From positions 96,001-160,000 of the IMG/VR virus record IMGVR_UViG_3300045594_000116: a DNA stretch of 64,000 nucleotides; one strand, given 5' to 3'. The number at the start of each line of letters is the position of its first letter. Within the stretch, counting starts at the first letter, position 1. Below are positions 1,809-46,841 of the stretch, in pieces. The stretch comes from a virus (Duplodnaviria > Caudoviricetes). Position numbers and translations under genes: made by a program. Under the pieces are notes generated by a model that was given only the letters and a program-made list of their open reading frames with translations, was not told the DNA's origin and ran no database searches.

Positions 1809-2930
1809 ATGTTTATTGGTGAAAATACACTGTTCGGCACTGCTCCGACGGTACACGTAGAAGCTGATACTAACTATGATGGCGGCATCGGCTGCCAGGT
1901 AGCTATGGTTGAAAGCTATCAGAATGAATTCGAATTCCTTAAAGCTGCTGTATTGGCAGACGTCAAGGAATGCGCTATGATCAGCGAGTCTGCTTCTGAG
2001 GAAGATATTGCTGCTATGCAGGAAGGCGTTCTCAGCTCTGTATGGAACAAGCTCAAGGAGCTTGTTAAAAAGATCATCGCAAAAGTGAAAGGTATCTTCA
2101 AGGGCTTCATCGCTCGTCTGGAAGCTTTCATGGGCAAGAACGGTTATGCTTTCTTCGAGAAGTATAAGAAGGTTCTGTATGATGGTACGGACATCAGCAA
2201 ACTGAAGTTCGAGTATTGTGAGCCGAAAGAGAAGTTCTCTCCAGACGGGAAATTCAAAGGCATCAACTTGATGCCGGTTGTTGGCTCGATGGGAGACGAT
2301 GACGATGCGACGGATATCGAGGAGAAATTCCTTGATAGCATTTCTGGCGGTATCTGCAAAGATGCCAAGACGGTTGCTAAAGATCTGAAGGATCATTACT
2401 TTGATAGTGAGACCCAGACTGATGCTAAATCCAGTGACATTGGCAAGTATTGCCAGTACATCATGGACAAGACTTCCGTTGTAACGTCGCTTGAGAAGGT
2501 CCAGAGCAAAGAAGAGTCTGAGATGAACAAGTGGGTCGCAGAGATCGACAAAGCTGCCAACAACCAGGCTTCCAACATTGCTGACGTTGCTGCTGGTAAA
2601 GATACGTCCAATCCTAAAGATATGTCTTTCCGGCATAACGGAAATGGTGCTAAAGCTTTTGGCCAGGCTAATACCGCAAGCCAGAAGATTGTTACGAAAT
2701 ACCAGCGTGCAGTTGGTGCTGCTAGCCGCGCTCTGAATTCGTACAACAGCGCTGCTATGAGCGTTGCTAAATTCGGCGTTGCTCAGTCCCGCCGTGTTGC
2801 TGCAATCATCGTTGCTTACAAGAGCCGTCATAAAGGCAGCAAGCACGAGTCTGCTGATCTCGATCTGTATCTGGATGCAGTTGGCGAGGCAGCTGAGATT
2901 AACACTCTTACAGAGCTTGAGTCTCTGTAA
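1809..2930 (+). CDS. Inner head protein, paralog 1
   Basis: RBS AAGGAGG. Acidic propeptide, then MQE|G, then amphipathic helix VLSSVWNKLKELVKKIIAKVKGIF, as in phiKZ-type internal head paralogs. Confidence 0.7.
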   Translation: MFIGENTLFGTAPTVHVEADTNYDGGIGCQVAMVESYQNEFEFLKAAVLADVKECAMISESASEEDIAAMQEGVLSSVWNKLKELVKKIIAKVKGIFKGFIARLEAFMGKNGYAFFEKYKKVLYDGTDISKLKFEYCEPKEKFSPDGKFKGINLMPVVGSMGDDDDATDIEEKFLDSISGGICKDAKTVAKDLKDHYFDSETQTDAKSSDIGKYCQYIMDKTSVVTSLEKVQSKEESEMNKWVAEIDKAANNQASNIADVAAGKDTSNPKDMSFRHNGNGAKAFGQANTASQKIVTKYQRAVGAASRALNSYNSAAMSVAKFGVAQSRRVAAIIVAYKSRHKGSKHESADLDLYLDAVGEAAEINTLTELESL

Positions 2931-2960
2931 TTCAAATAAAAATAGAGGAGGAAAACTAAC

Positions 2961-4001
2961 ATGTTTATTGGCGAAAGCACATTGACCGGCCATTACCTGG
3001 ACAACGTTCAGGCTGAGGCCGTTGAAATTGATAATGCACATGAAGCTATGATCGCTGCTACGGCAGTTGATGAAGCAAACTTCAATGCAATTATGGCTCC
3101 GTTCGCAGTTGCAGAACTGAATGCACTTCGCGAGGGTGCTGATCCGTTCACGACCGTATATACGGAAGGCACGCTCAGTTCTTTCTGGGAGAAGGTAAAG
3201 GCTTTCTTCAAGAAAGTTTGGGCAAAGATCAAAGGTATTTTTGCTAAAGTTATGACGCGTCTTGACGCTCAGTTCCGCAGTGGCAAATCCTTCTGGGATA
3301 AGTACAACAAGGAGCTGGCTAGCAAATTTGCAAAGATCGACAAAGATAAGGTCAAATTTGTTGGTTACAAATATGACGTTAAAGCTCTCACCGATGATGT
3401 AGCTACTCCGGCTACTGGTGAGAAGAACTCCAACGTATATGCTACGAATGATGCTGATCGCGATGAAGAGATTCTCGATAAGTATCGTGGCGAAACGGTT
3501 GGTCAGGGTTCTCTGGCTGCCAACGAGTATTCCAAAGAGCTCCAGCAGCATTTCCGCGGTGGAGATACGACGAAGAGCGAAGTTGACGGAGTAAATCTCT
3601 CGTACATCGCTTCTTTCCTCAGCTCCGATAAGCTCATCAGCGATGTGAAGAAAAACTTCCGCATCCTTGAAAAGGCATGCGAAGCTAATATTCGTGACGC
3701 TGAGAAGAAGTCGAAAGAGCATATCGATCAGAACGTTGAAGCTTCCAAAGGCGACGACAAGAAGGCTAAAGAAAGTGCACAGTCTGCAGTTTCTTCCGAT
3801 CAGCATTGGCTTGTTATCGCTCGTGGTCGTCTTGCTATTGCTCAGCAGTATGTAGGCGCACAGGTATCCGCTATCCAGAGCGCTATCGGCCAGGCTAAAG
3901 GCTTTGCTGGTCAGGTTCTGCGTGCATCCGTTAAAGAGGGCGCTGCTCTCGAGGGTGCTTATGGCAGCAACGATATCTTCGGCAGCGTAAAGCTTAAGTA
4001 A
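2961..4001 (+). CDS. Inner head protein, paralog 2
   Basis: Same MFIGE start as paralog 1; YTE|GTLSSFWEKVKAFFKKVWAKIKGIF. Confidence 0.7.
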   Translation: MFIGESTLTGHYLDNVQAEAVEIDNAHEAMIAATAVDEANFNAIMAPFAVAELNALREGADPFTTVYTEGTLSSFWEKVKAFFKKVWAKIKGIFAKVMTRLDAQFRSGKSFWDKYNKELASKFAKIDKDKVKFVGYKYDVKALTDDVATPATGEKNSNVYATNDADRDEEILDKYRGETVGQGSLAANEYSKELQQHFRGGDTTKSEVDGVNLSYIASFLSSDKLISDVKKNFRILEKACEANIRDAEKKSKEHIDQNVEASKGDDKKAKESAQSAVSSDQHWLVIARGRLAIAQQYVGAQVSAIQSAIGQAKGFAGQVLRASVKEGAALEGAYGSNDIFGSVKLK

Positions 4002-4025
4002 GAAAAAATAATAGAGTATATATTT

Positions 4026-4051
4026 CAGGCAATGGCTTAGTCCATTGCCTG
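4026..4051 (+). terminator. Stem-loop after paralog 2
   Basis: CAGGCAATGG-cttagt-CCATTGCCTG. Confidence 0.6.
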
Positions 4052-4078
4052 TTATATTACTTTTAAGGAGGATAAAAA

Positions 4079-5344
4079 ATGGCTTCAATATTTAGCGCAC
4101 AATCCTTCCTCAAAGAGTCTTCTATTTACTCTATTCAGTTAGATGATAAGGGAACTTATAGAGAGGAATCTTTCTTCATGGAAGGTTTGGATTTCCTTAC
4201 TGAAATGCAGAAAGAGAATGTAAGATATAGAGCTGATCTGTATCGCGCAGTTGCTGAGTCTGGTACCAATATGGTAGCAGTTCATGAAGCATTTACTGAT
4301 TTCTTTGGGCATATCAAGGATTTCATTAAGAAGGTAATCAACTTCTTTAAGAAGCTGCTTGCAAAGTTCTGGGTACGTATAAACAGCATGTTCCTTCGTG
4401 ATAAGTATATTACGAAGCACAAAGACGAACTTAAGAAGTTCGAGTCGAAACATGAGTTCGACTTCAATGGATTTGAATATACGTTTAGCGATAACATTCC
4501 ATCGCTGTCTGTAATTGAATCAGTTAAAAATGCTGTTACTACACTTGCAGATGAAGCAACTGAAGAAGGAAAATGTAAGACGTTCAAGAGCAAGAAAGAC
4601 CTTGAGACTGCTTACAAAACCTTTACGACCGAGAAATGCGAATCTTCATATCTTGACAAGCAGCGCGGATCGATTCTTGGCAATAAGCGTGGCATCAGTG
4701 AAACGGAGTATAAGGATGAACTCTTTAAAGTCTTCAGAAACAATGAGGACAAGAAGGGTAAGATTACTGCCAATGCTACACTGGTAAACAAATGCCTGTA
4801 TGATTTCGAGAAATACTCAGAGATCAAAAAGAAGACAGAGCATCAGCGTGATGAAGTGGAAAAGGCATACAATCTTATCGAAAAGGGTTTTGATCGGATT
4901 CATAATGCGGTATTCGGCAAATCTGGCAAGGAAGTCGATGTCCTGGATATCGTAGATACTGCTGATGAAGATCGTACCCAGCTAATTGACATGTTCGCAA
5001 AAGAGAAGGCTGTAGAAGTACAGGAGATTTCCAATCTTCATGTAATGGCTTTCACTGCTAAACTTGATGCACTTAGAGATAAGTATGCTCAGGATAAGGC
5101 TGTAATGTATGCGGCATTCAAGAAGATTCTTGCGAAAGAGAAGATGTTCGCTAAAGAATCTGCTGAACTCGATGAAGTTCTTGAGCATAACGATATCGAT
5201 GCTATCATTGATACTCATGTCCGTGATGCAGTTCCAAGCGAGGACGATTCTGATAAGAAAGAACCTTGGTCTAACACTGATAAAGATACGTCCGTAGCAG
5301 ATGCTACAGACAGCGGCAATAATGGAGGTGAGTGCTGTGCGTAA
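4079..5344 (+). CDS. Inner head protein, paralog 3
   Basis: RBS AAGGAGG; VHE|AFTDFFGHIKDFIKKVINFFKKLL. Confidence 0.65.
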   Translation: MASIFSAQSFLKESSIYSIQLDDKGTYREESFFMEGLDFLTEMQKENVRYRADLYRAVAESGTNMVAVHEAFTDFFGHIKDFIKKVINFFKKLLAKFWVRINSMFLRDKYITKHKDELKKFESKHEFDFNGFEYTFSDNIPSLSVIESVKNAVTTLADEATEEGKCKTFKSKKDLETAYKTFTTEKCESSYLDKQRGSILGNKRGISETEYKDELFKVFRNNEDKKGKITANATLVNKCLYDFEKYSEIKKKTEHQRDEVEKAYNLIEKGFDRIHNAVFGKSGKEVDVLDIVDTADEDRTQLIDMFAKEKAVEVQEISNLHVMAFTAKLDALRDKYAQDKAVMYAAFKKILAKEKMFAKESAELDEVLEHNDIDAIIDTHVRDAVPSEDDSDKKEPWSNTDKDTSVADATDSGNNGGECCA

Positions 5345-6779
5345 CGAATATTTGGAAGATACTAGATATGCTCAGTATCTTATTGAAATGACGGCTGAAG
5401 AGGAAAAGCTGAAAGGCTTTACTGAAGCTCTTATCGGTGTACATGAAGGTGCAAGCATCGATAGCCTTATGGCTATTCGTGAAGGCGTTAGCGATAAGAT
5501 CAATGGTGTATGGGAGAAGTTTAAAGGATTCCTTGAGAGAATCTGGGCTAAGTTCATGAACTATGCCAACAAAGCTATCCTGAATCAGGTTGAGTATCTT
5601 GAGCAGTATAAAGATATCATTCTCAATCGTAAGCCTAACGACTTTGCTTTTGAAATGACCGATTATCCTGCTGGTATTCAGCGGATGGGCTCTGTAACCA
5701 TTCCGGTCTTTAAGACGGTTATCGACAAAGTCACTACAGAACCAACTGATACGAGTTTCATGCACACCATCATTGGTGAGTACGATGATAAGACCCCATG
5801 GCCTACGTTCTGTGCTCAGTTCTTTGAAGGTGGTACTGTTCAGAAACCTGCAAATCTGCAGAATATGAATATGACCGATCTTTACAATTACTGCCATGAC
5901 TTCAAGTCTAGAATCCTTTCCAATATCGAGAAGGATCAGAAGACTTTGCAGGGAACGCTCGACAGTATCAGAGGCGATATCACTTCTGCTAGTCAGGCCG
6001 CAGCAAAGCCGGCAGCAACGGCTCCAGAAGCTAAGAAGCCTGAAGATACCGGGAATTCAGCCCCTACGAATAATACCCAGCCTACATCTCAGAATTCAAG
6101 TTTTATTGACGATACGTATAAGCATTTCTTTACTGAAGATATGACTATCGGAAAGCCGGATGACAATAAGGACAATGGAACTGCAAAAGCTCCTACGTCT
6201 ACTCAGACCGCTGGAAATTCCACGGTTACGAATCAGTCATCTACGAAACTTGGCTCTACTACAGGAACCAATACTGGTGTAAGCTCCTTGAAGACTACGA
6301 CAGACGCTAAGGGTGCAGATACCAGCGCTCAGGTAGATACCAAGGGACAGGATTCTGAACAGCTTAAAACCCTTGAAGAGAAATTGAAGAACTATGATAC
6401 AGTTGCTGCAGGCGTACTTACTGGTAAACTGCAGGCTGCACAGAATATCTTCAATGACTATATGAAGCTGATCAAAATCCATATCCAGCAGCAGACTGGT
6501 AAGGGTGGTACTAACCAGGCAGCAGCCAATGGTACTAACACTAATCAGGCTCTTGATCTTTCTGGACTTGGTGATCTGGCTGACTTCGCGGTAGATGCAG
6601 GTAAGATTGTTAAGAATGATCCTCCATATAACGATGCTCAGAAGAAAGCTGAAACTATCAAGCAGTATATCGATAAAGTTAAGAATAACAATCCTAACTT
6701 TACTGGTAACTTCAATGATATCATGAAAGCAGCATCTTCGCAGATTGCAGCTCAACAGAAAAAAACTGAGGGTAAATAA
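5337..6779 (+). CDS. Inner head protein, paralog 4, with Thr/Ser/Ala-rich insert
   Basis: GGAGGTG precedes GTG at 5337, which overlaps the upstream stop; IRE|GVSDKINGVWEKFKGFLERIWAKF. Confidence 0.65.
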   Translation: MRNEYLEDTRYAQYLIEMTAEEEKLKGFTEALIGVHEGASIDSLMAIREGVSDKINGVWEKFKGFLERIWAKFMNYANKAILNQVEYLEQYKDIILNRKPNDFAFEMTDYPAGIQRMGSVTIPVFKTVIDKVTTEPTDTSFMHTIIGEYDDKTPWPTFCAQFFEGGTVQKPANLQNMNMTDLYNYCHDFKSRILSNIEKDQKTLQGTLDSIRGDITSASQAAAKPAATAPEAKKPEDTGNSAPTNNTQPTSQNSSFIDDTYKHFFTEDMTIGKPDDNKDNGTAKAPTSTQTAGNSTVTNQSSTKLGSTTGTNTGVSSLKTTTDAKGADTSAQVDTKGQDSEQLKTLEEKLKNYDTVAAGVLTGKLQAAQNIFNDYMKLIKIHIQQQTGKGGTNQAAANGTNTNQALDLSGLGDLADFAVDAGKIVKNDPPYNDAQKKAETIKQYIDKVKNNNPNFTGNFNDIMKAASSQIAAQQKKTEGK

Positions 6780-13579: not shown

Positions 13580-15433
13580 TTACTTGATTCCGATTATTCT
13601 TTTAAAAAGATCGATAGTGTAAAGTAACGTACTTCTACGAATCTTTACTCTATCATCAGAGAATGGACTATCCTGATATTCCTTAAGCATATCAAAGTTT
13701 CTATCATATTTCTGTACGATAGCCATATACTTTGTAATATCATTGATAATCTTTGCCCTAGCTTTATGATAATCCTGTATCTTCTTTTTACTACGTTCCT
13801 GATGGATTTTCTCCTCAAGAATCGTATTCAGATACCAAAGTTTGCAAAGGCAATATTTCATTCCTTCTACGTTCTTTGCTTTCTCATATTGTTTAAGAGC
13901 AAGATGTGTTGTAGAATACTCAGCTTCAAAGTCTACATCGAGACCCTTATCTATAAGAAGGTTTCCATCATCATCAAACTGAATAGGCCATTCTTTTGCT
14001 TCCATAATGCATGAGAATGAATCTATCAATGTATTCTCTGTTTTAGGAGCATTAGACTTGGAAAGCGAATCGATATAGCTCAATACCTTTGCCGCCGAAT
14101 ACTTCTTAGGTGATCCATAGAATACCTTATAGATGAATGCCGAATACTTCTTTTTCTTTACTGCTCTATTCAAACTTCCAGGAGATACCATATTAGAACC
14201 AATCTTAGTGATATCTACATCTGCAAGCTTGAGCATGCTATCCACAAACTGAGAGCATACCATCTTTACGTTATCAACGTAATTGATATTGAGCGGTATA
14301 GTAATCAGATTGATAAGAGAGTAGTCAGCATGTGATTCTTTCAGCTTTTCTATCTTCTGCTTAAGCTTATTGTATCTTTCCTTAGATACAAATACTGCAT
14401 ATACTTGAATAGCTTTATCAGATGTGCGTTCTTTCAACGATTGTGCCTGAAACCCACCAGGGAAAGAGAAACTATACAAAGTTTTCATAGATGCATCAAA
14501 TGATAATGCTGAATGTGAGTATACTGACTTAGTAGCTATTCTAGTCAATTTATTGAAAAATGTCTCAGAATTGAAGAAAACTACGTATAGTGGGTACACA
14601 TCAAGGGAAGTCTCTGTAAACGCGTTTTTCGCATTTTTGACACTCTCAGATACATCCAAAATGGTGTAATTAGAAACTGATTCTGAGATGATCTTGCTAA
14701 CTCTTTTGCTGGCAAAGCGTTTAGTAGATTCATTATATTGTATTTCTGGATTCCATCCTAGATCAAGTATAGATTGCTTAACAGCATCTACATCTTTCTT
14801 ATCAGAAGTCTTAGAAAGTTTCATATACAGTTTCTTTAAAGTATTATCCCAATCGGTGTATCTGGACATGGTAGATCCAAATCCATTCAGCCTATTGCAA
14901 TAATGCTTATACCATTCCGCTGCATCCAAGTCAGTTTTGAATGCCTCTTTAGAGTACATAGGATTTTCACTCAAGTATGACACTCCAAGGTGCTCCATTT
15001 CGTTAGATGTGAAGTAAGGAGTGCCGAGAAATCTTACAGAATTATCGGCATCGACCCTATCAACTATATCTTCTGTAGCACATTCAGAAAGATACTTACT
15101 ACGAATATCAATAGGTTTCATAAGAGCTGCCGACTCAAGAGCCGGGCTGTATCTCTTATCAAACAAACTATCATTGATATCGTTCTTTAAGAATTCATGC
15201 GCCATTTTCTCATAGCGAGTTCTGTTATCAAAGTTAAATAACTCTATCGATTTCCAGTCAGATTCATGCTGAAAATCTATAGGCATTTCTTGATATGAAT
15301 TGAAGTCCTGCTTAAGCGATTTAAAATCTGGATACTTACTATACAGAAGAATCTTATTGTTACCAATACGCCATTTCTTAACTTCTCTATCGCCAAGCTC
15401 TACATGCTTGATTTCTTCATCAATGTTTAACAT
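13580..15433 (-). CDS. Virion-associated protein with an inserted permuted papain-like (YiiX/YebB-type NlpC/P60) domain
   Basis: His before Cys: YSHSALSFD...MVCSQFVDSML. ATG at 15433 overlaps the end of the upstream polyprotein. Several hydrophobic-x-E-S/A/T sites. Confidence 0.65.
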   Translation of the reverse strand: MLNIDEEIKHVELGDREVKKWRIGNNKILLYSKYPDFKSLKQDFNSYQEMPIDFQHESDWKSIELFNFDNRTRYEKMAHEFLKNDINDSLFDKRYSPALESAALMKPIDIRSKYLSECATEDIVDRVDADNSVRFLGTPYFTSNEMEHLGVSYLSENPMYSKEAFKTDLDAAEWYKHYCNRLNGFGSTMSRYTDWDNTLKKLYMKLSKTSDKKDVDAVKQSILDLGWNPEIQYNESTKRFASKRVSKIISESVSNYTILDVSESVKNAKNAFTETSLDVYPLYVVFFNSETFFNKLTRIATKSVYSHSALSFDASMKTLYSFSFPGGFQAQSLKERTSDKAIQVYAVFVSKERYNKLKQKIEKLKESHADYSLINLITIPLNINYVDNVKMVCSQFVDSMLKLADVDITKIGSNMVSPGSLNRAVKKKKYSAFIYKVFYGSPKKYSAAKVLSYIDSLSKSNAPKTENTLIDSFSCIMEAKEWPIQFDDDGNLLIDKGLDVDFEAEYSTTHLALKQYEKAKNVEGMKYCLCKLWYLNTILEEKIHQERSKKKIQDYHKARAKIINDITKYMAIVQKYDRNFDMLKEYQDSPFSDDRVKIRRSTLLYTIDLFKRIIGIK

Positions 15434-18400
15434 TTTTCTTAGCCACCACCTTAGCTGGAATATCTTTGATCCTCTGGTAATATGCTGTACGCATTCCAGT
15501 CTTTGCGTTCTTAGCATAGACACCATACTGATTCTCCATCACTACGACATCTTTCAATCCTTCAGTGATAGCATCTGCTTCTTTAATCATATGAGGATTA
15601 GTAAGAGGGAATTCATGATCTTTCTTACCCTTAATAGACTTAAGCTGCTCAGCTACAGTCTGTAGATATGAGGTAGCTTCAGATCCAATATCAATTGGAG
15701 ATACCTCTGTACATGATTCATCACAAAGAATCTGATCATCTGATAACAGCTTCTTTCCAGTAAGGGCTTCATATATGAATCCTCTAGGTTGAACAGTTCC
15801 TATAGCATTTTCGATAATACGTAATCCTTCTGGATCAGATCTGAATTGGAATACACGAAGCTTTCTTCCTTTTAAGAACTCCTCCGTATTCTCTTTCTTC
15901 ACCATACCAGATTTGTCTTGCGTAAGAATATTCTTAGTCAGGATATCATTGGAGACTGCATATCCTTCTACATTCATATCCATGATTCCAGTACCAGTAT
16001 CACGATGTACTGGTCCGTACTGGGTTACATATGATAAGTCAGGTGCAGGTGTCATCCCACCAGGGCCTGCAAACTCATTCAAGTCCATATCTGCTCCTTC
16101 CCGAATAGCATCCCGATGATTGAAGTAGAAGTCAATTGCCTCTTCATGCTCCGCTCTCCAATCAATGGTATCTACTCCAACATATTTTGCTTTCTGATAG
16201 AAATCGTCTTTGTCGACGTCCTCTATATGACCAGTAAACTTCTTAGCGTATTCTGCTACGAATATGAATGTAAGACTGCCTTCGTATTTCAATCCCAGTG
16301 GCCAAAGTTTCTTCTTTTGCCATTCAGGATATTTTCCTTCATAATTCTGGAAGTAAGTCATTCCAGTATATGATCTATTCTTAGTTACGACTAAGGCCTC
16401 TTCATTGCATTCAGCCTCAGCTTGCTCATCTAATGCTCTGCCTTTATCTAATCCACCACCAGGAAGTTTATAGTTGGTTCCATACTTGTTAAGATTCTTA
16501 GGATCTTGCATTTCTACAAGTACATCCCCATGCTTATCGAATATAAGAGTTTCTACTCTTACACGATACTGCTTGTTGTCATACATGATATAAGGATTAT
16601 CTATACCTTCAGCAGACTTAATATATTTGATATCTTTCGGCTTAGGAATAGGAACTAAATTTGCTTCCATTGCGATAGAATCTCTGTAGGTATTCATAGG
16701 TGGAACAGGCATAGGAATAAGTTCCATCCACTCTGTATCCATATTATATGCAACTAAGAATATCTTCTCTATCTCATCCTCTCCAAAGAGAATCAGATAA
16801 GATAACCAAAGATCTTTAGCCATCTGAATATGCATAATACCAGAGTAGGTAAAGAGTTTATCTCTCATAGTATCTACTAACCCATTACCGGTAGCCATAG
16901 ATTGAATATAGTTACAAAGCTGATTAGCATTGTATCTCTTATCTGCATCAGTATCTTTAGGATTGAAGATGATAAGGAACTCATATTCCTTTCCAGCTTT
17001 TTCATAGAAAGAAGCAGTAGCCTTGCCGATGATACTAAAGAATTTCTCGCTAGGATCGAACCATTCTTTGAATCTATCCTTTCCAGCACATGCCAGATTA
17101 GCAAGAAGAATCTCAGCCCCTTCAGACTTTGGAGAGATAAAGTAGTTTATACGTTCTTTATGTTCTACTCCTACAGATTCTATCAATGATTCATAGTTAG
17201 GATCTGTGCTATGATATTCTCCTTCATAAGTAGATACTGATTCCTGCATACCAACGTTATCTATAACGATGGTTCCAGTGTCATATATGTGATTCATATA
17301 TTTAACGGTTGTAAGACCAAATTTTCTAGATGGTTTATACTTCATAAGAAGATTTGGCATCTTTTCTTCATTAAGTTTACTTACGTATACAGCTATCATA
17401 TCTTGCTCATTGTCAAAACAATGAACTCCTTTAAAGCTATACCATGAAGATTCTACCACGTAAACTTTATTACCTTTCATACATGCTACCCATGTATGTG
17501 TAGGATTAACTCCATCATCACTATTGAATTGATGATAGTATAATGAATATTTACCATTGCTTAAATCTGCAGTGGTATTTTTATATCCCATTTTCTCTAG
17601 ATACTTAGCTTCATAGTCTGCATAATCCCAGCATATACCATATCCAAGCTTTTCAAATTCAGCCGGAGACTTAGTTTTATAATCTTTAAAGTAGTCATCC
17701 CTCTCTTCATAAGAGAAGTTTGCCTCTAAATTATTATATAACCTTACCAATTCCTTAGGACCTTTGGCAGGTTTTGCGTTTTCTAATACCATATTATTAT
17801 CACCTCTATAATTATAATATATAGGTGAAAGGTTAGTTGACTCTCCTTCATAAGTAGATACCGAGTCATCGAGTTCTCCAGATTCCATCATAGAATCATT
17901 CGTCCTATTAAACCAATCTGATGCAGCATATATCAACTTAGCTTTTATAGACTTTGGAAGGTGCGTTAGCTTTTCCTTCAAGTTGTCGTACATATCGTTA
18001 TGCATCTCAGGATTTGGAGAATCGTATTTGCAAATAAGAGATGGCATATACTTAGATTTGAACATCATATCATCTCTAAATATCTTTTTATCTCCATAGA
18101 ATTTATCATAGATTGGATACTCCTTGGTATCCTGGATAGCTGCAAAATATTTAATATCACATAAATCATTGTCGCTAGCTTTTCCTATGATATTCTTTAC
18201 ACTCATAACATGCTTCTTCATCATCTTAAGTTGTTCATTTCTTACATCTTCAGGCTTAGAGTATGGGCCCTTCATTCCATAAGAACGTTTCCCTTGATAA
18301 TTAAAAACATAGTACAATCCATCTTTTTCTTTATAGATGCACATAAAGTGCTGGAACATATGATACTCTTTATCTCCATACTTACGGAAGTATTTGGAAG

Positions 18401-20828
18401 TCCTAAGGATATAGTTTTCGATATGTTTACGTTCGCAGAAGAAATGCATGAGCAAAGCAAAGTCGATACACGTTCCAAGCTTCGTTCTCAATATATCATC
18501 AGGCCAATAGAAATGTATTCCTTTGCTACGGTCTTTAGCATTAAACTCTTTAGGCCAATCACACTGATTCACCTTAACCCAATTAAGAACGTCGGTTGGA
18601 GATTGCATGTCCTTACAGAAGGCATCGAAGCTAGTATACTTCTTTTTGTATCTATCAATACCAGATTCATTGATGGTAGACTCTCCAAATATTCCTTTTA
18701 TAGATTTGAGTATGCTGCTCAACTTGATTTTATCTAGTTTAGAAAGAACCTCATCGAGCCACGTAATCTTATCAGTATGGCATTCTTTATTCACCTTAGC
18801 AAACATATCCCAAATTTCAGGTATACGTTTAACTATCTCTGCTTGGGTGGCATACCTATCATTATAATAATCATCATATACATTCAGATTTTCTTTTTGT
18901 ATACGAGAAAACACCTTTTTAGCATGATACTTTCCAGGCATCAGTTTTAAGAAAAGAGAAGTGATGTAGAAATAATACTTTTTATATGCCGCTTCTGCTT
19001 CTTCGTATGAGCCAAATGGTCCCTGGAGTGAACCTTCATTGTTAGCACGATAATTAAAGATATAGACTCCAGAATCTTTTATTTTGTATAGGCATACTAT
19101 ATGACCTAAATACTTAGTATCTTTATCATTAGTCGCTATAGTTCCTATATACAGCATTCTATTTTCTATGCTATTACGATTACAAAGCAGACGCATAAAG
19201 ATGGCATGATCGAAGCAAATTCCAGCATGATTTTTGATTATTTCATCAGGCCAAGCTACGATAACATCATCTTCATTCGTACTATGAATGGCTAATCTTC
19301 TTTTTACCCTCTCATCTTGCGTAAACCATCTGATATTATTTACGTTATACCAGTCATTCAATTCACTAGGAGTTTTGATAGATTTACATAAATCATTAAA
19401 CCCAGAATACCTTTTGGTAAACTTACTACCTACAGTTTCATCAATAAGATTCTCTTCAAACATATCATCTCTCATACGATTTGTAATAGAGATATAGTTC
19501 CTATACCCATTTACTATCTTAGGAATTCTTTTCATTGCTAAACTTGGCGTTCCATAGTCTCTTTTGATTCTACGGATTATAGACGTAGTTAATGAAGTTC
19601 CCTTGATGACAAAAGCAGCATTGTTAAGTAATGGAGAATGATATTCATACATATCCAGTATAAAAGCTCCCTCTATTACAAATCTTTCATTAGAGCCTAT
19701 AATAAACTTGATATAGTCTTCCATAAGCTTTTTACGAAAGATCTTATCATACTTTACCTTTTTAGCAATATTAGTATTTACTTTAGTATCACCGTACCAA
19801 TCTTCCATTCTCCATGGAATTTTATCTGCTGGAATACTATCAGCATCGGTTAGCCACCAGAGTATTTTATCAGTATCTATATGATGAGCATCATATTCAT
19901 CTGACAATTCTTCCGATAACGTGGATTTACCACTTCCAGATAATCCCACCATATAAAGTACAGAAAGTTCTTTATTTTTCCACGCATCCAAATTCAATAC
20001 TAAGTCTTTTTCTGAAAAGATGATAGGAGTGCCTTCTTGCAGCATATTTACTTCTTCATTGACATTGATGATGACCTTCTTATTCTCTTCACTATCATCA
20101 ATCATCTGAGCTTTCAATTCTGCTACGATACCAAGCAGCTGGCTGAAATCGTTATCAGTCAATCTAAGGTAGTTGAATTTACCCATATTGGTAATCATCT
20201 GCTCTTTGGCTAACTGCTTTTCTCTATAAGAAACCATCTCTCTGTTATTAGGATTGCTGCCTCCATCCTTAACTTCAATCACAAGATTGAATGGGATAAG
20301 AAGGATATCGGTAATCCATTTAAGTTTCTTTCCTTTGTAGATATATTCTATCGTAGGCCCAGGAGAGAGAATATCAGTGCTTTTGAATCCCATCACTTTA
20401 TCCATGAATTCAAGAGCCTTCTCTTCGTATTTACCAGTAAATACATGATATCCACCATCAGTGAATTTATACTTACCAGATATACGTCTGTTAGCCAGCA
20501 TCTTTTCTTGCTGCTCTGGGTCATCAAGAAGAGTAGTCTTACCATGTACTCTAAGCATATTCTTCTTATAAGCATCTCGCAAAGCTTTCTGGCACTGTGG
20601 TCTACCACAGAGCCGATCATATTTGCAAGCTGTTTCATTCCATTTCGTTGGTCTCTTGCATACAACGCAAGTACCATGATCTTTATGATTGATAGTGTTG
20701 AATACTATCTGATTCGCTGTCATACCTTTTGGAATGCATTCCTCATGCTCTTCCTCAATATGAGATCCTAAGTTTTCTCTAGTAGCTCTATAGCTGCAAA
20801 AGGGACACTTATACGTTTTCGTACTCAT
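15420..20828 (-). CDS. 1802-aa polyprotein: Zn fingers + PD-(D/E)xK nuclease-like, P-loop kinase, 3x transglutaminase-like, unknown domain, Nudix, C-terminal domain
   Basis: CPFC..H..H; WITDILL..IEVK; GLSGSGKS; GICFDHA/GHIVC, GTCIDFA/QHFMC, GICWDYA/THTWV; LPGGGLDKGRALDEQAEAECNEEAL. RBS GGGAGG and late promoter 20853-20864. Confidence 0.75.
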   Translation of the reverse strand: MSTKTYKCPFCSYRATRENLGSHIEEEHEECIPKGMTANQIVFNTINHKDHGTCVVCKRPTKWNETACKYDRLCGRPQCQKALRDAYKKNMLRVHGKTTLLDDPEQQEKMLANRRISGKYKFTDGGYHVFTGKYEEKALEFMDKVMGFKSTDILSPGPTIEYIYKGKKLKWITDILLIPFNLVIEVKDGGSNPNNREMVSYREKQLAKEQMITNMGKFNYLRLTDNDFSQLLGIVAELKAQMIDDSEENKKVIINVNEEVNMLQEGTPIIFSEKDLVLNLDAWKNKELSVLYMVGLSGSGKSTLSEELSDEYDAHHIDTDKILWWLTDADSIPADKIPWRMEDWYGDTKVNTNIAKKVKYDKIFRKKLMEDYIKFIIGSNERFVIEGAFILDMYEYHSPLLNNAAFVIKGTSLTTSIIRRIKRDYGTPSLAMKRIPKIVNGYRNYISITNRMRDDMFEENLIDETVGSKFTKRYSGFNDLCKSIKTPSELNDWYNVNNIRWFTQDERVKRRLAIHSTNEDDVIVAWPDEIIKNHAGICFDHAIFMRLLCNRNSIENRMLYIGTIATNDKDTKYLGHIVCLYKIKDSGVYIFNYRANNEGSLQGPFGSYEEAEAAYKKYYFYITSLFLKLMPGKYHAKKVFSRIQKENLNVYDDYYNDRYATQAEIVKRIPEIWDMFAKVNKECHTDKITWLDEVLSKLDKIKLSSILKSIKGIFGESTINESGIDRYKKKYTSFDAFCKDMQSPTDVLNWVKVNQCDWPKEFNAKDRSKGIHFYWPDDILRTKLGTCIDFALLMHFFCERKHIENYILRTSKYFRKYGDKEYHMFQHFMCIYKEKDGLYYVFNYQGKRSYGMKGPYSKPEDVRNEQLKMMKKHVMSVKNIIGKASDNDLCDIKYFAAIQDTKEYPIYDKFYGDKKIFRDDMMFKSKYMPSLICKYDSPNPEMHNDMYDNLKEKLTHLPKSIKAKLIYAASDWFNRTNDSMMESGELDDSVSTYEGESTNLSPIYYNYRGDNNMVLENAKPAKGPKELVRLYNNLEANFSYEERDDYFKDYKTKSPAEFEKLGYGICWDYADYEAKYLEKMGYKNTTADLSNGKYSLYYHQFNSDDGVNPTHTWVACMKGNKVYVVESSWYSFKGVHCFDNEQDMIAVYVSKLNEEKMPNLLMKYKPSRKFGLTTVKYMNHIYDTGTIVIDNVGMQESVSTYEGEYHSTDPNYESLIESVGVEHKERINYFISPKSEGAEILLANLACAGKDRFKEWFDPSEKFFSIIGKATASFYEKAGKEYEFLIIFNPKDTDADKRYNANQLCNYIQSMATGNGLVDTMRDKLFTYSGIMHIQMAKDLWLSYLILFGEDEIEKIFLVAYNMDTEWMELIPMPVPPMNTYRDSIAMEANLVPIPKPKDIKYIKSAEGIDNPYIMYDNKQYRVRVETLIFDKHGDVLVEMQDPKNLNKYGTNYKLPGGGLDKGRALDEQAEAECNEEALVVTKNRSYTGMTYFQNYEGKYPEWQKKKLWPLGLKYEGSLTFIFVAEYAKKFTGHIEDVDKDDFYQKAKYVGVDTIDWRAEHEEAIDFYFNHRDAIREGADMDLNEFAGPGGMTPAPDLSYVTQYGPVHRDTGTGIMDMNVEGYAVSNDILTKNILTQDKSGMVKKENTEEFLKGRKLRVFQFRSDPEGLRIIENAIGTVQPRGFIYEALTGKKLLSDDQILCDESCTEVSPIDIGSEATSYLQTVAEQLKSIKGKKDHEFPLTNPHMIKEADAITEGLKDVVVMENQYGVYAKNAKTGMRTAYYQRIKDIPAKVVAKKNVKH
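17218..17861. repeat. Perfect 20-bp direct repeat flanking the third transglutaminase module
   Basis: TCTCCTTCATAAGTAGATAC at 17218-17237 and 17842-17861, both encoding VSTYEGE on the minus strand. Confidence 0.9.
17790..17823 (-). promoter_or_regulatory. Internal early promoter + RBS + in-frame ATG inside the polyprotein
   Basis: Minus strand TATATATTAT aattat AGAGGTGA taataat ATG (17792, Met1013). Confidence 0.75.
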
Positions 20829-20852
20829 TGTTGGAATCCTCCCTTGTAAGTT

Positions 20853-20864
20853 TACTAGTATGTC
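20853..20864 (-). promoter_or_regulatory. Late promoter variant GACA-N6-TA
   Basis: GACA TACTAG TA upstream of the polyprotein RBS. Confidence 0.6.
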
Positions 20865-20958
20865 AGATAGGCCTAATTTGACATATCCAGTAATATAAAT
20901 TATTTTTGCGTATAAATTAACTACTCAAACTTTATTAGTAATAAATGGAGGTAATCAT

Positions 20959-32366: not shown

Positions 32367-32399
32367 CCAAATTAAATTCAAATGCGATTAGCTTAAATA

Positions 32400-32411
32400 A
32401 ACAATATAGTA
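32400..32411 (+). promoter_or_regulatory. Late promoter of the major capsid gene
   Basis: AACA ATATAG TA. Confidence 0.75.
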
Positions 32412-32480
32412 AATATTTAGCCCAATCTCGGCTTGATATATTATATCTGAAAATAAGAAATTACTAAGGAGGAAATAAAC

Positions 32481-34463
32481 ATGTCTGTTGTAGGAACTAG
32501 AGAAAATAACAAAGACATTATGCGCGGCTATGAGCAGGACGCCATGGCCCCATTTGCCGAAGCATTCGTAAACGTTGCAAAAGCTGGTATTGATGAGGGG
32601 TGCAACTTCTTCGGAGATACGAGTGACTTTTTGCGTAATCGCTCCACTCGTGATGAGCTGAAGAAATTCTTCATGGAGCAGTCTTTCGATAAGGAAGATC
32701 CGCGTTTCTGCCAGGAAGGCAAAAATGCAAACCCGAACGCTGCTGCTAACATCAAAGAGCATATGGACGAGATGTCTGCACTGTTCGAGAACGATGTTGA
32801 GAAGATCATGACAGAGGCTTCGCCGCTGGGTGCTTTCAACAACGTTGTTGGTCTGGCACTGCCGATTCATAAGAATATTCTTATGAGTGCTGTGTTTGAT
32901 CAGATTCTGCCGAAATCGGTTGCTCAGAGCCCGAAATTCACGCTGTCCCTTGAGACTCGTGAAATGATCGACATTCACGGCAACCACATCGATATGTTCA
33001 TGGAGCAGAACAAGATGACTCCGGCCATCAACGAGTCTGTTCCGAACCAGGATGTTATCATCCCGATTCCGGAAATGAAATCCGTGAACATTCTGAAAGA
33101 TACGTTCAACCTCGTTGGTCAGAAATATCATCTGTCCATCAAATCGGCTGTAACGGGTATCATCGTTGAGTCCATGTGCAAAACTGGCGATACGTATTAT
33201 GATGCAACGACGAAGACGATGAAGCAGGTTACGGCAGCAGCTGATGAAGGTATGAAACCGGTTCTGTTTGAGTGCGGCGAGATTCAGTTCCTGCCGGGTT
33301 ATGGCGAGATCGATCGTCAGATCAACAAGACGATTGGCTTCACAATCACGAAGGCTGATGGAACGACTGTTCCGGTTACCGGCGTACTGGCTGGTGGCGC
33401 TTACAAGGATGATACGTTCTACTTCACGTTCACGCCATCCACGGCTGAAGCTAAAGTTTCGGCTATCCGCTTCCATGCTGTCGTAGACACGACGTCTGCA
33501 GCATTCCCGACGGTCCGCTTCGAATGGGCTGCGAAGACTGATATCTTCCAGATCCCAGAGCAGCCACACGTTACGGTTACGGTATCCCCGGAATCCGTAA
33601 AAGATATCCAGGCTTCGTACGATGTAAACCAGATCACGAAGCTCATGAGCATGATGCAGCTTGCACTTGTTCATTGGAAAGATGACAATATCCTTATGGA
33701 TCTTGATCACAGCTTCAAGACGATGCCGGCAAGCCAGAAGGTCACCGGTGCAATCGATTGGGCTCCACCTCTCCAGTTCCTCGGTACGCCGAAGCAGTGG
33801 AGAACGGAAATGGGCATGGACCAGCTCGACAAGTACGTTACTCGTATGCTTCAGGTTCTGAACGACGAGAACATGACGATCCTTGTTGTTGGTCGTCCGG
33901 AGATCATCCGCAACATTGTTCCGCAGGAATATACGTACCAGGCTCCGAGCAACATCGGTCCGGTGCAGCTTGACTACACTCGTACGGTCGTTTCGACTGA
34001 TAAGCGTGTGTACAACTTCGTATCCAGCCAGAAGATGCGTAATGATAACAACCTTATCCTTATGCTGATTCCGCGCAACACTATGCGTATTACGTACAAA
34101 CTGATCGATTATCAGCTGTATGTATCCAATGAAATCCGCGATACTGTTAACTACGAGCTCCCGGGCATGACCTGCTTCGAGCGCTGGTTGTTCCTCCAGT
34201 ATCAGCCTGTACAGGGGAGAATTCAGATCATGAACGTTATGGGTACTCGTGAGCAGATCGAGAACAACAACCCGGTTGCTGATCGTGCTATGCATGATGA
34301 TACGGCTAACTACAGCTCCTACGCTTCTAGCGTCAATGGCGTTGTTAAGACGAGCGATGGTTCCTTCATCGGTGTCGCAAAGACGGCTACGCCGGCTGCT
34401 GCACATGAGAACAAAGCTGTTGTCGGTAACCCGACTGGCTTTGCTGCTCCTGACCAGCATTAA
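32481..34463 (+). CDS. Major capsid protein precursor
   Basis: 660 aa, very strong codon bias, own late promoter and terminator (34486-34511), propeptide ending IMTE|A; resembles AR9-type capsid proteins from recall. Confidence 0.75.
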   Translation: MSVVGTRENNKDIMRGYEQDAMAPFAEAFVNVAKAGIDEGCNFFGDTSDFLRNRSTRDELKKFFMEQSFDKEDPRFCQEGKNANPNAAANIKEHMDEMSALFENDVEKIMTEASPLGAFNNVVGLALPIHKNILMSAVFDQILPKSVAQSPKFTLSLETREMIDIHGNHIDMFMEQNKMTPAINESVPNQDVIIPIPEMKSVNILKDTFNLVGQKYHLSIKSAVTGIIVESMCKTGDTYYDATTKTMKQVTAAADEGMKPVLFECGEIQFLPGYGEIDRQINKTIGFTITKADGTTVPVTGVLAGGAYKDDTFYFTFTPSTAEAKVSAIRFHAVVDTTSAAFPTVRFEWAAKTDIFQIPEQPHVTVTVSPESVKDIQASYDVNQITKLMSMMQLALVHWKDDNILMDLDHSFKTMPASQKVTGAIDWAPPLQFLGTPKQWRTEMGMDQLDKYVTRMLQVLNDENMTILVVGRPEIIRNIVPQEYTYQAPSNIGPVQLDYTRTVVSTDKRVYNFVSSQKMRNDNNLILMLIPRNTMRITYKLIDYQLYVSNEIRDTVNYELPGMTCFERWLFLQYQPVQGRIQIMNVMGTREQIENNNPVADRAMHDDTANYSSYASSVNGVVKTSDGSFIGVAKTATPAAAHENKAVVGNPTGFAAPDQH

Positions 34464-43287: not shown

Positions 43288-43366
43288 TGACGTTTCTAAT
43301 CCCATTGGTTCAGCACCAATGGGATTTTATTTTTTGTGGAAACATCGAAGTAAAGAGGTGAAAACG

Positions 43367-45719: not shown

Positions 45720-45992
45720 AAAATAAGAGACTGGGTAAGGCCATTTGCCTTACCCGGTTTCTTGTGTCTCTTAACAAAGTATGATATCACCCATGTGATC
45801 ACCATCTTTGCATAGATAAAAACTGAGCATCTAACTCCTCCCAGGATACCTTTTCTATCAGGCAGTATAAAACTACCTATCACATCATCTTGATGCTCAC
45901 CTCTTACCATTATTATAATATATAATTCTAAATACGCCAATTTACAATGCTTTACTGAAACATACGAGTAAATGGTAAAGGAGGTAATATGA

Positions 45993-46841
45993 GTGAATCC
46001 GTTAGCTTATATAATTTGTGAATCTACAGCTCAGGATGTAGAATTCAATATTGTAAATCAAAATAGAAACTTTGTAATTGCTGAGGGTATTCTCCAGGAA
46101 GCCGAAGGCGAAAATCGTAATCATCGCTGCTATGCTAGGGAAGATCTCTTCAAAGAGATTACCTCTCCGAGACAGCAGGAATTGGTTCAGAGCGGAAACT
46201 TCAAAGGAGAAGCAGGCCATCCAATGGATGTGAATCTTGCTCGTCAGCAGACTATTGATCCTACCCTTGTTCAGGTTTGGTATACTAAACTTTGGATGGA
46301 CGGCAACTTGGTTAAAGCCCATTTCAGAGGTACGAACAATGAACTTGGTCGTGGATTCAATGCAGACCTTCTGGATGGTCAGAAACCATCATTCTCTCTT
46401 CGCGCTCTTGGCAGAATTGAGAATCAGAAGGGTAAAGCGTATGTAAAAGGGCTTAAGATCGTTACATATGATCGTGTATACTATCCGTCTCATTCAAAAG
46501 CATACACTAGTAAGATCATCAGTGATGATGCTGAAAAGGTAATGGCGAATAGTGCTAAGTTTAGCACTCCTATTAGTGTCAAAGAAGCCGGCAATAATAT
46601 GGTGATGACAGAGAGTGGTATTCTTTCGCCAATTTGCTCTGAATCTGTTCGTAACTATCTTATCTCTGAATCTGCAAACATCGATTTCATTCGTAAGAAT
46701 TTTGATACCTTCTATGAGAGCATCAAACTTACGGAAGATGGAAACAGTGTTGCTTTGACGACTAAAGACTATGATACGATTCTTGTTCCGGTAGAGCGTC
46801 ATATCTCTAACGAAATTATGGAATTTTGCTCGAAATTATAA
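45993..46841 (+). CDS. Prohead protease, T4 gp21-like
   Basis: NRNHRCY, GEAGHP (His), FSLRALG (Ser), TYD.V..PS; late promoter AACA TACGAG TA (45959-45970). Confidence 0.85.
   Translation: MNPLAYIICESTAQDVEFNIVNQNRNFVIAEGILQEAEGENRNHRCYAREDLFKEITSPRQQELVQSGNFKGEAGHPMDVNLARQQTIDPTLVQVWYTKLWMDGNLVKAHFRGTNNELGRGFNADLLDGQKPSFSLRALGRIENQKGKAYVKGLKIVTYDRVYYPSHSKAYTSKIISDDAEKVMANSAKFSTPISVKEAGNNMVMTESGILSPICSESVRNYLISESANIDFIRKNFDTFYESIKLTEDGNSVALTTKDYDTILVPVERHISNEIMEFCSKL

Follow-up and report, generated by a model that had tools for sequence, protein, structure and literature searches.

A giant-phage gene that strings enzyme modules together at candidate head-protease sites

Several described systems share features with a gene found in a 64,000-nucleotide stretch of viral DNA (positions 96,001 to 160,000 of IMG/VR record IMGVR_UViG_3300045594_000116; hereafter the window, to which all positions refer unless stated otherwise). 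This gene, P0001, lies at 15420..20828 on the minus strand and encodes a protein of 1802 residues that joins a nuclease to several unrelated enzyme modules. Polyvalent proteins, described by Iyer, Burroughs, Anand, de Souza and Aravind in 2017, likewise hold disparate enzymes in one chain and have mosaic architectures; they comprise two to 15 domains of disparate activity and have been proposed to be effectors delivered with the DNA, with processing attributed to built-in zincin-like (MPTase) or assemblin-like peptidase domains (PMC5512222). In phage T4, the internal proteins and Alt are cargo that the head retains and that passes into the host on ejection, and they are cut after Glu in a hydrophobic-x-E motif by gp21, a protease of the same family (S77) as the one considered below. 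Targeting in T4 relies on a peptide of approximately 10 residues, the capsid targeting sequence MKTYQEFIAE, with one cut per protein (PMC8442874). The giant phages phiKZ and SPN3US also load cargo into their heads, namely the ejection or inner-body proteins, which the S80 proteases gp175 and gp245 cut after Glu, with several cuts per substrate known. The motifs in these phages have a small P3 residue (A-x-E in SPN3US, SxE cited for phiKZ; PMC10052503, PMC5694885), and nearly all known cuts remove N-terminal propeptides rather than separate enzymes (PMC10052503). Finally, the polyproteins of RNA viruses follow the same logic, in which one reading frame, a viral protease and short conserved sites yield several enzymes.

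We read P0001 as combining the organisation of polyvalent proteins with head-protease processing of the T4 style. As in polyvalent proteins, the chain contains a nuclease, a P-loop kinase, three transglutaminase-like modules, a Nudix-like module and two unassigned domains, and the architecture is mosaic, with 49 Pfam families among 47 family members and with relatives of 96%–99% identity that differ by whole modules. The MPTase zincin and assemblin-like domains gave no Pfam match in P0001 or in the scanned relatives, where M23 and transglutaminase-like domains were found instead. Unlike in polyvalent proteins, each joint of P0001 bears the kind of site that the head protease cleaves in trans. 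In comparison with T4, no short (approximately 10-residue) N-terminal targeting peptide was found in P0001, which starts with a folded nuclease of 265 residues, the presumed carrier, and has no early cut motif; moreover, the 8–10 cuts predicted here would release about nine products. There is no homology to the polyproteins of RNA viruses, and the processing of P0001 would occur inside the assembling capsid of a double-stranded DNA phage. The anchor formed by a zinc finger and a PD-(D/E)xK nuclease was not found described in the study of polyvalent proteins (PMC5512222) or in the jumbo-phage survey by the same group, and in the literature searched, itself incomplete, neither this family nor head-protease sites that separate polyvalent modules were found described. 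On balance, we lean towards the view that P0001 is a late-expressed, head-packaged polyprotein of a giant phage similar to AR9 and phiR1-37, which is cut by an S77 protease and whose pieces are ejected with the DNA.

The window is part of a 229.5-kb virus record. Genes for split multisubunit RNA polymerases, for GroEL, for a T4-like terminase and for a gp25-like wedge protein place this record in the AR9/PBS1/phiR1-37/Staphylococcus jumbo-phage group. The single polyprotein gene proposed in the initial annotation was confirmed as one reading frame that is open for 1802 codons, and genes near-identical to it are present on other contigs; therefore, P0001 is a real gene rather than an artefact of assembly or gene calling. 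Its DNA had no nucleotide match among phage records. In protein searches, isolate phages matched in the N-terminal domain (N-domain) only, and no cultured phage with the extended form was found.

Profile matches and coordinates bore out the module order that had been proposed, that is, zinc finger/nuclease, kinase, three transglutaminases, an unknown domain, Nudix and a C-terminal domain (C-domain), all on the minus strand. The N-domain (residues 1–265; 20034..20828) contains a C2H2 finger (residues 5–29) and a further, Cys4 cluster, together with a nuclease of the PD-(D/E)xK type and a conserved linker to VNEEVNMLQE↓G (the arrow marks the candidate cut), and its residues 4–231 matched phrog_15137, annotated as an endonuclease (E = 2.5e-43). 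It corresponds in finger and nuclease core, in conserved Cys, His, Asp and Lys residues and in genomic position to AR9 g233 and phiR1-37 g237 (‘endonuclease fused to N-terminal Zn finger domain’). These positional orthologues are 31%–39% identical to the N-domain; unlike P0001, they are single-domain proteins of 237–239 residues that end before the linker and the cut element. The P-loop kinase module (residues 266–464; 19437..20033; end IDE↓T) matched AAA_33 with 30 bits when scanned alone (cut-off 27). An origin of this module by fusion with the guanylate kinase gene near the AR9/DC4 orthologue was rejected, as no similarity was detected.

Three transglutaminase-like modules follow the kinase. 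Module 1 (residues 465–721; 18666..19436; end INE↓S) was assigned from DUF553, which matched P0001 in three stretches with 37.3 bits (cut-off 20.5), and from an AlphaFold2 (AF2) model, in which it folds confidently from approximately residue 466 to 700, with the CPR-C4 protease, vasohibin and LapG as the nearest folds. The kinase module was left unfolded in the AF2 model of residues 230–760, with a predicted local distance difference test score (pLDDT) of approximately 30. Module 2 (residues 722–982; 17883..18665; end MME↓S) is a paralogue of module 1; the single transglutaminase module of one relative (P0003) matches both, being 77% identical to module 1 and 29% identical to module 2. A linker containing the first copy of DSVSTYEGE and VLE↓N (residues 983–1016; 17781..17882) leads to module 3 (residues 1017–1196; 17241..17780; end MQE↓S), in which Transglut_core matched residues 1021–1081 with 30.8 bits (cut-off 23), and a second linker with another VSTYEGE copy and LIE↓S (residues 1197–1217; 17178..17240) stands behind it. 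The domain of unknown function (residues 1218–1388; 16665..17177; end AME↓A) gave no match in Pfam, PHROG or Atlas searches; it is present in 12 relatives and forms the terminal domain in one subfamily (P0004, P0006–P0011, P0013 and P0014). The Nudix-like module (residues 1389–1577; 16098..16664; end IRE↓G) scored 19.6 bits against NUDIX, under the cut-off of 21.1, and matched phrog_1198 (E = 6e-4), and the homologous module in relatives clears the Pfam cut-off (26.3 and 30.9 bits).

The C-domain (residues 1578–1802; 15423..16097) was modelled by AF2 with a mean pLDDT of 83.6, and its first half has a permuted papain-like fold (NlpC/P60, LRAT-like). The nearest structures were PLAAT4 (Z 7.3), 3kw0 (Z 7.3) and YiiX (Z 7.1), values that are middling, yet the top matches are all of one kind. 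Despite this fold, an active enzyme was rejected since no Cys or His is conserved in the domain, which is probably non-catalytic and may be a pseudo-enzyme for binding. In a visual comparison, made with no residue alignment, the position of the PLAAT nucleophile was occupied by IYEALTG. A sequence search of the PDB with the protein yielded nothing useful.

All nine junction sites claimed in the initial annotation were found at their coordinates (E265↓G, E464↓T, E721↓S, E982↓S, E1016↓N, E1196↓S, E1217↓S, E1388↓A and E1577↓G), and FEE↓N (459) and FGE↓S (716) are two further sites adjacent to joints. The joint form in the clade of P0001 is hydrophobic-(N/T/H/Q)-Glu followed by Ser, Ala, Gly or Asn. 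Joint zones were delimited without reference to the motif, from the points at which BLAST similarity to relatives starts or stops; the breakpoints clustered at residues 258–269, 444–464, 718–724, 1172–1241, 1383–1397 and 1565–1591, and the zones covered 16% of the length of P0001. The strict motif [LIVM]xE[SG] occurred six times in these zones against 1.0 expected from local composition (P = 0.0005), which is the excess at junctions over interiors that the cargo-loading proposal had called for. The broad motif occurred 11 times against 3.5 expected, and decoys (Asp or Lys in place of Glu, charged P3, hydrophobic P1′) remained at chance. Over the whole protein, the density of the strict motif was 0.50 per 100 residues, 2.4 times the proteome mean of 0.21. 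Furthermore, AF2 placed sites 265, 464 and 721 in stretches with pLDDT < 50 that adjoin confident fold.

The N-domain defines a large and diverse family. A search with this domain recovered 959 clusters at 50% identity, giving a family of at least that size, and among the best 150 clusters the proteins ranged from 251 to 1684 residues, with the domain nearly always N-terminal. Its conserved Cys, His, Asp and Lys are invariant in 47 diverse members, as is the joint Glu, and the modules behind it in relatives include GNAT, M23, HAD, DUF5662, DUF362, glutamine-amidase-like and P-loop domains. The first joint, [IV][IVY][RKNH][IV][NH]E, was found in 158 of 159 non-redundant relatives. The single-domain AR9 g233 and phiR1-37 g237 end approximately 20 residues short of this element; therefore, it is a feature of the extended forms rather than a part of the nuclease fold. 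Across 160 non-redundant relatives, in a noisier breakpoint test, the strict motif stood just upstream of 76 of 378 module starts (40 expected), and family-wide decoys were at approximately 1.0×, except for [LIVM]xE[KRDE] at 1.5×. The form [LIVM]xE[SGATN] preceded 26 of 31 kinase, 13 of 19 transglutaminase and 6 of 7 Nudix starts, compared with 20% of background windows. Of 45 internal joints, 36 had Ser, Ala, Asn or Gly at P1′, a position that had been left free in the search.

Near-identical relatives differ by whole modules exchanged at motif joints. P0002, which is 99% identical to P0001, lacks exactly the kinase module through a 582-nucleotide in-frame indel and reads MLQE↓TCIDE↓TVG; short microhomology is present at both joints of this indel. 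In P0003, which is 96%–98% identical to P0001 at both ends, GNAT replaces the kinase, and there is one transglutaminase module and a single VSTYEGE linker. Direct repeats of 26 nucleotides (17218–17243 and 17842–17867) flank module 3 in P0001. Because the differences in P0002 and P0003 and the direct repeats fall at the joints, these are also the points at which modules come and go. An alignment of orthologues had been proposed as a check on the cargo-loading idea, and it revealed that the domain order is not fixed and that middle modules are exchanged at the motif. The accompanying expectation of constant termini held for the N-terminus, which is constant across the family, and failed for the C-terminus, as the C-domain was detected in only 39 of 172 relatives. 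Where present, the C-domain is last in many proteins, including two-domain proteins of approximately 470 residues, and in some relatives it directly follows the N-domain with further modules appended behind. A separate downstream gene for the C-domain was not found by tblastn in AR9 or phiR1-37.

The protease proposed as the cutter is encoded in the same window (45993..46841, plus strand). Its earlier assignment to the T4 gp21 type agrees with a match to Peptidase_S77, the family of gp21 (36.4 bits, cut-off 27), and to phrog_207, and an S77 protease was present in 5/5 related genomes searched. Prohead proteases of the T4 type cut after Glu (PMC5694885), and those of giant phages do so too (PMC10052503). 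The motif had also been reported in the major capsid protein (MCP), in head paralogues and in the protease itself, and it was present in all of them. The C-terminal tail of the protease holds a conserved xE↓SAN and other copies of the motif. In the MCP (32481..34463, plus strand; phrog_20655), IMTE↓A after residue 112 (E112 codon at 32814–32816) is a candidate maturation site; hydrophobic-x-E is conserved in five lineages just before the conserved PLGAYNPVVG, and the four other lineages read LTE↓A, INE↓H and VQE↓N (twice). Isolate MCPs, which share only approximately 22% identity, were dropped for placing this site, and metagenomic relatives were used instead. Four head paralogues have a site at one aligned position (MQE↓G, YTE↓G, VHE↓A and IRE↓G), and the density of the strict motif in the genome was highest in the protease and the head paralogues. 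Four tandem paralogues of 373, 346, 421 and 492 residues at 1809–6779 (plus strand) have a common N-terminal segment of approximately 60–70 residues that ends in a Glu site at one aligned position, with a conserved amphipathic stretch (..W.K.K.F.KK) behind it; they rank among the proteins with the most motif copies and have the look of abundant proteins of the head interior.

It would be very surprising if the joints were instead processed by the transglutaminase-like Cys peptidase modules of the protein itself or by the papain-like product of the downstream gene. Glu at P1 is a hallmark of S77/S80 prohead proteases (PMC5694885), and many members keep the motif without any peptidase module, such as P0017 (kinases, DUF5662) and P0012. 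Such self-cutting would fit with the resemblance of module 1 to the true Cys proteases mentioned above and with the downstream gene, which is translationally coupled to P0001 and encodes a His..Cys domain; the absence of a conserved Cys or His in the C-domain argues against it.

Evidence on the timing of expression comes from the promoter region and from gene order. A late-type promoter-like box, GACATACTAGTA (20853..20864, minus strand), has its last base 25 nucleotides before the ATG, and a ribosome-binding site, AAGGGAGG (20838..20845, minus strand), was read from the sequence. Given as GACATACTAGTAaac, 25 nucleotides upstream of the ATG, the box is nearly the same as that of the protease gene, AACATACGAGTAaat. 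In this genome, the regions upstream of genes show a 5.7-fold enrichment of the pattern [AG]ACA-N6-T[AG]. The late consensus of AR9 is AACA-N6-T(A/G), in which the first A is critical (PMC7598289). As the GACA of the P0001 box differs from this critical A, the box is best regarded as a lineage variant suggested by the enrichment and not as a proven promoter. The late-type promoter of the initial annotation is accordingly plausible in that the box is of an enriched type, and it departs from the AACA-N6-TA consensus as a GACA variant. P0001 is divergent from the gene for the gp25-like baseplate wedge, as are AR9 g233 and the orthologue in Staphylococcus phage DC4, and this gene order makes it a positional orthologue of g233. 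In AR9, g233 is expressed late, with values of 0.47, 141 and 1092 at successive times, and a late start site has been mapped for it (PMC5312081 supplement).

In the mechanism that we favour, the ancestral part would be the N-terminal zinc finger/PD-(D/E)xK nuclease, a small virion protein in relatives, behind which enzyme modules would have been strung (the kinase, three transglutaminase-like Cys hydrolases and the Nudix-like module in P0001; GNAT, M23, HAD and others in relatives). The nuclease would carry the whole chain into the prohead, where a protease of the T4 gp21 family would cut after the Glu of each joint, and the freed enzymes would then be ejected with the DNA and be active before the expression of any phage gene. 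For P0001, packaging into the head, cleavage, ejection and enzyme targets are steps that we infer. A broader proposal, which we put forward tentatively and at slightly less than an even chance, is that the virion nuclease serves as a generic carrier, with the inserted enzymes being co-packaged, cut free in the prohead and delivered, and with the joints doubling as swap points among relatives. Taken as a whole, the cargo-loading reading of the initial annotation is partly supported.

Several findings weigh against processing in the head. The motif is short, and the domain interiors of P0001 are not depleted of it, with nine broad copies inside domains. Where the C-domain directly follows, the first joint often has Glu, Asp or Tyr at P1′. 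Two of the three AF2 linker readings are weak because the kinase part of the model failed, and the site in the MCP with which the joints are compared is itself a candidate. All extended forms are metagenomic. In addition, DNA repeats and microhomology occur at the joints, so part of the likeness among joints could reflect recombination. In an alternative reading, the protein is a polyvalent protein that enters and leaves the capsid in one piece, as the virion RNA polymerase of N4 does, and the joints are not protease sites but structural linkers and, in the DNA, recombination points for the exchange of modules. Large virion proteins can indeed be packaged whole (PMC5512222), and the 26-nucleotide direct repeat around module 3, the microhomology at both joints of the kinase indel and the undepleted interiors speak for such an alternative. 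We nevertheless regard it as unlikely, since a hydrophobic P3, an invariant Glu and a small P1′ are kept across unrelated modules, the motif persists in relatives of approximately 50% identity without DNA homology, it matches the boundary motif of the MCP, and linker-like decoys are not enriched.

A further reservation concerns the virion location. It derives from one GenBank note, in which phiR1-37 g237 is annotated as ‘phage structural protein’ with head and tail not separated, and the orthologue was absent from the shallow virion proteome of phage DC4, which holds just 15 proteins, so absence there means little. P0001 might be made late without ever entering the head, whether as a cytoplasmic multi-enzyme in the producing cell or as a passenger of the tail or baseplate, and in both cases the head protease would never meet it. 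The adjoining gp25-like baseplate wedge gene, the term ‘structural’ in phiR1-37 and the DC4 proteome are compatible with this scenario. Its probability appears low, as the set of nuclease, kinase, GNAT and Nudix suits effectors inside the next host (PMC5512222), and the joint motif matches the sites of head proteins and is unlike the mark of the tail polyprotein. The latter, a giant tail protein of 4860 residues encoded ahead of the window (genome C1:71916-86498), carries 11 copies of [GS]K[WY]GRG and is poor in Glu motifs (0.12 per 100 residues), and P0001 contains zero copies of [GS]K[WY]GRG; therefore, the two multi-module proteins use different joint marks.

If the predicted cuts are real, P0001 and its relatives would represent a natural means of modular loading and release of many enzymes from one gene, and they would link two hitherto separate ideas, polyvalent effectors and T4-style head targeting and processing. 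The family would then form a large and fast-evolving pool of candidate early effectors (GNAT, kinases, Nudix, Cys hydrolases, M23, HAD and DUFs), whose boundaries could be read from sequence. What giant phages inject would also become testable, each predicted product being expressible alone. The rule of a carrier plus a site could serve to package chosen proteins into phage heads in laboratory strains.

Additional promoter-like sequences were observed. Across the whole genome, the pattern [AG]ACAT-N5-TAa lies 13–59 nucleotides (mostly 15–30) before many gene starts, for example at 45958–45969 and 43341–43352, and the genes preceded by it include those for the protease, virion proteins and the giant tail protein. 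Its GACA form is enriched as much as the AACA form, and it is likely to be the late-promoter consensus of this genome. In the divergent intergenic region upstream of P0001, an inverted repeat of the form ATATGTCA..N13..TGACATAT-like (20865–20895) overlaps the late-type box. Within P0001, in frame before module 3 (17790–17822, minus strand), ATATATTATA is followed by AGAGGTG and an ATG (Met1013). ATATATTATA agrees with the core of AAATATATATTAT, the early promoter of AR9, and TATATTAT occurs 51 times in the genome; the element could be an internal early promoter with a start for a shorter product, or it could be a chance occurrence. Upstream of the MCP gene (32370–32480), an early-like box, GATATATTATATC, is accompanied by a late-like box, AACAATATAGTA, an arrangement that recalls the continuously expressed class of AR9.

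The gene downstream of P0001 (13580..15433, minus strand) encodes a YiiX-like His..Cys domain flanked by the motif. Its ATG overlaps the end of P0001 (AAAAATGTTAAACATTGA), and its ribosome-binding site is AAGGTGG. A cluster of ISE↓S, VSE↓S and FTE↓T stands before the YiiX-like domain, and IME↓A stands after it. Fusobacterium phage JD-Fnp1 has the same gene order, with a wedge-like gene, an N-domain protein and a ‘cysteine peptidase’. The latter starts with MSILKEIAE↓S, which resembles the ..FIAE of the T4 targeting sequence.

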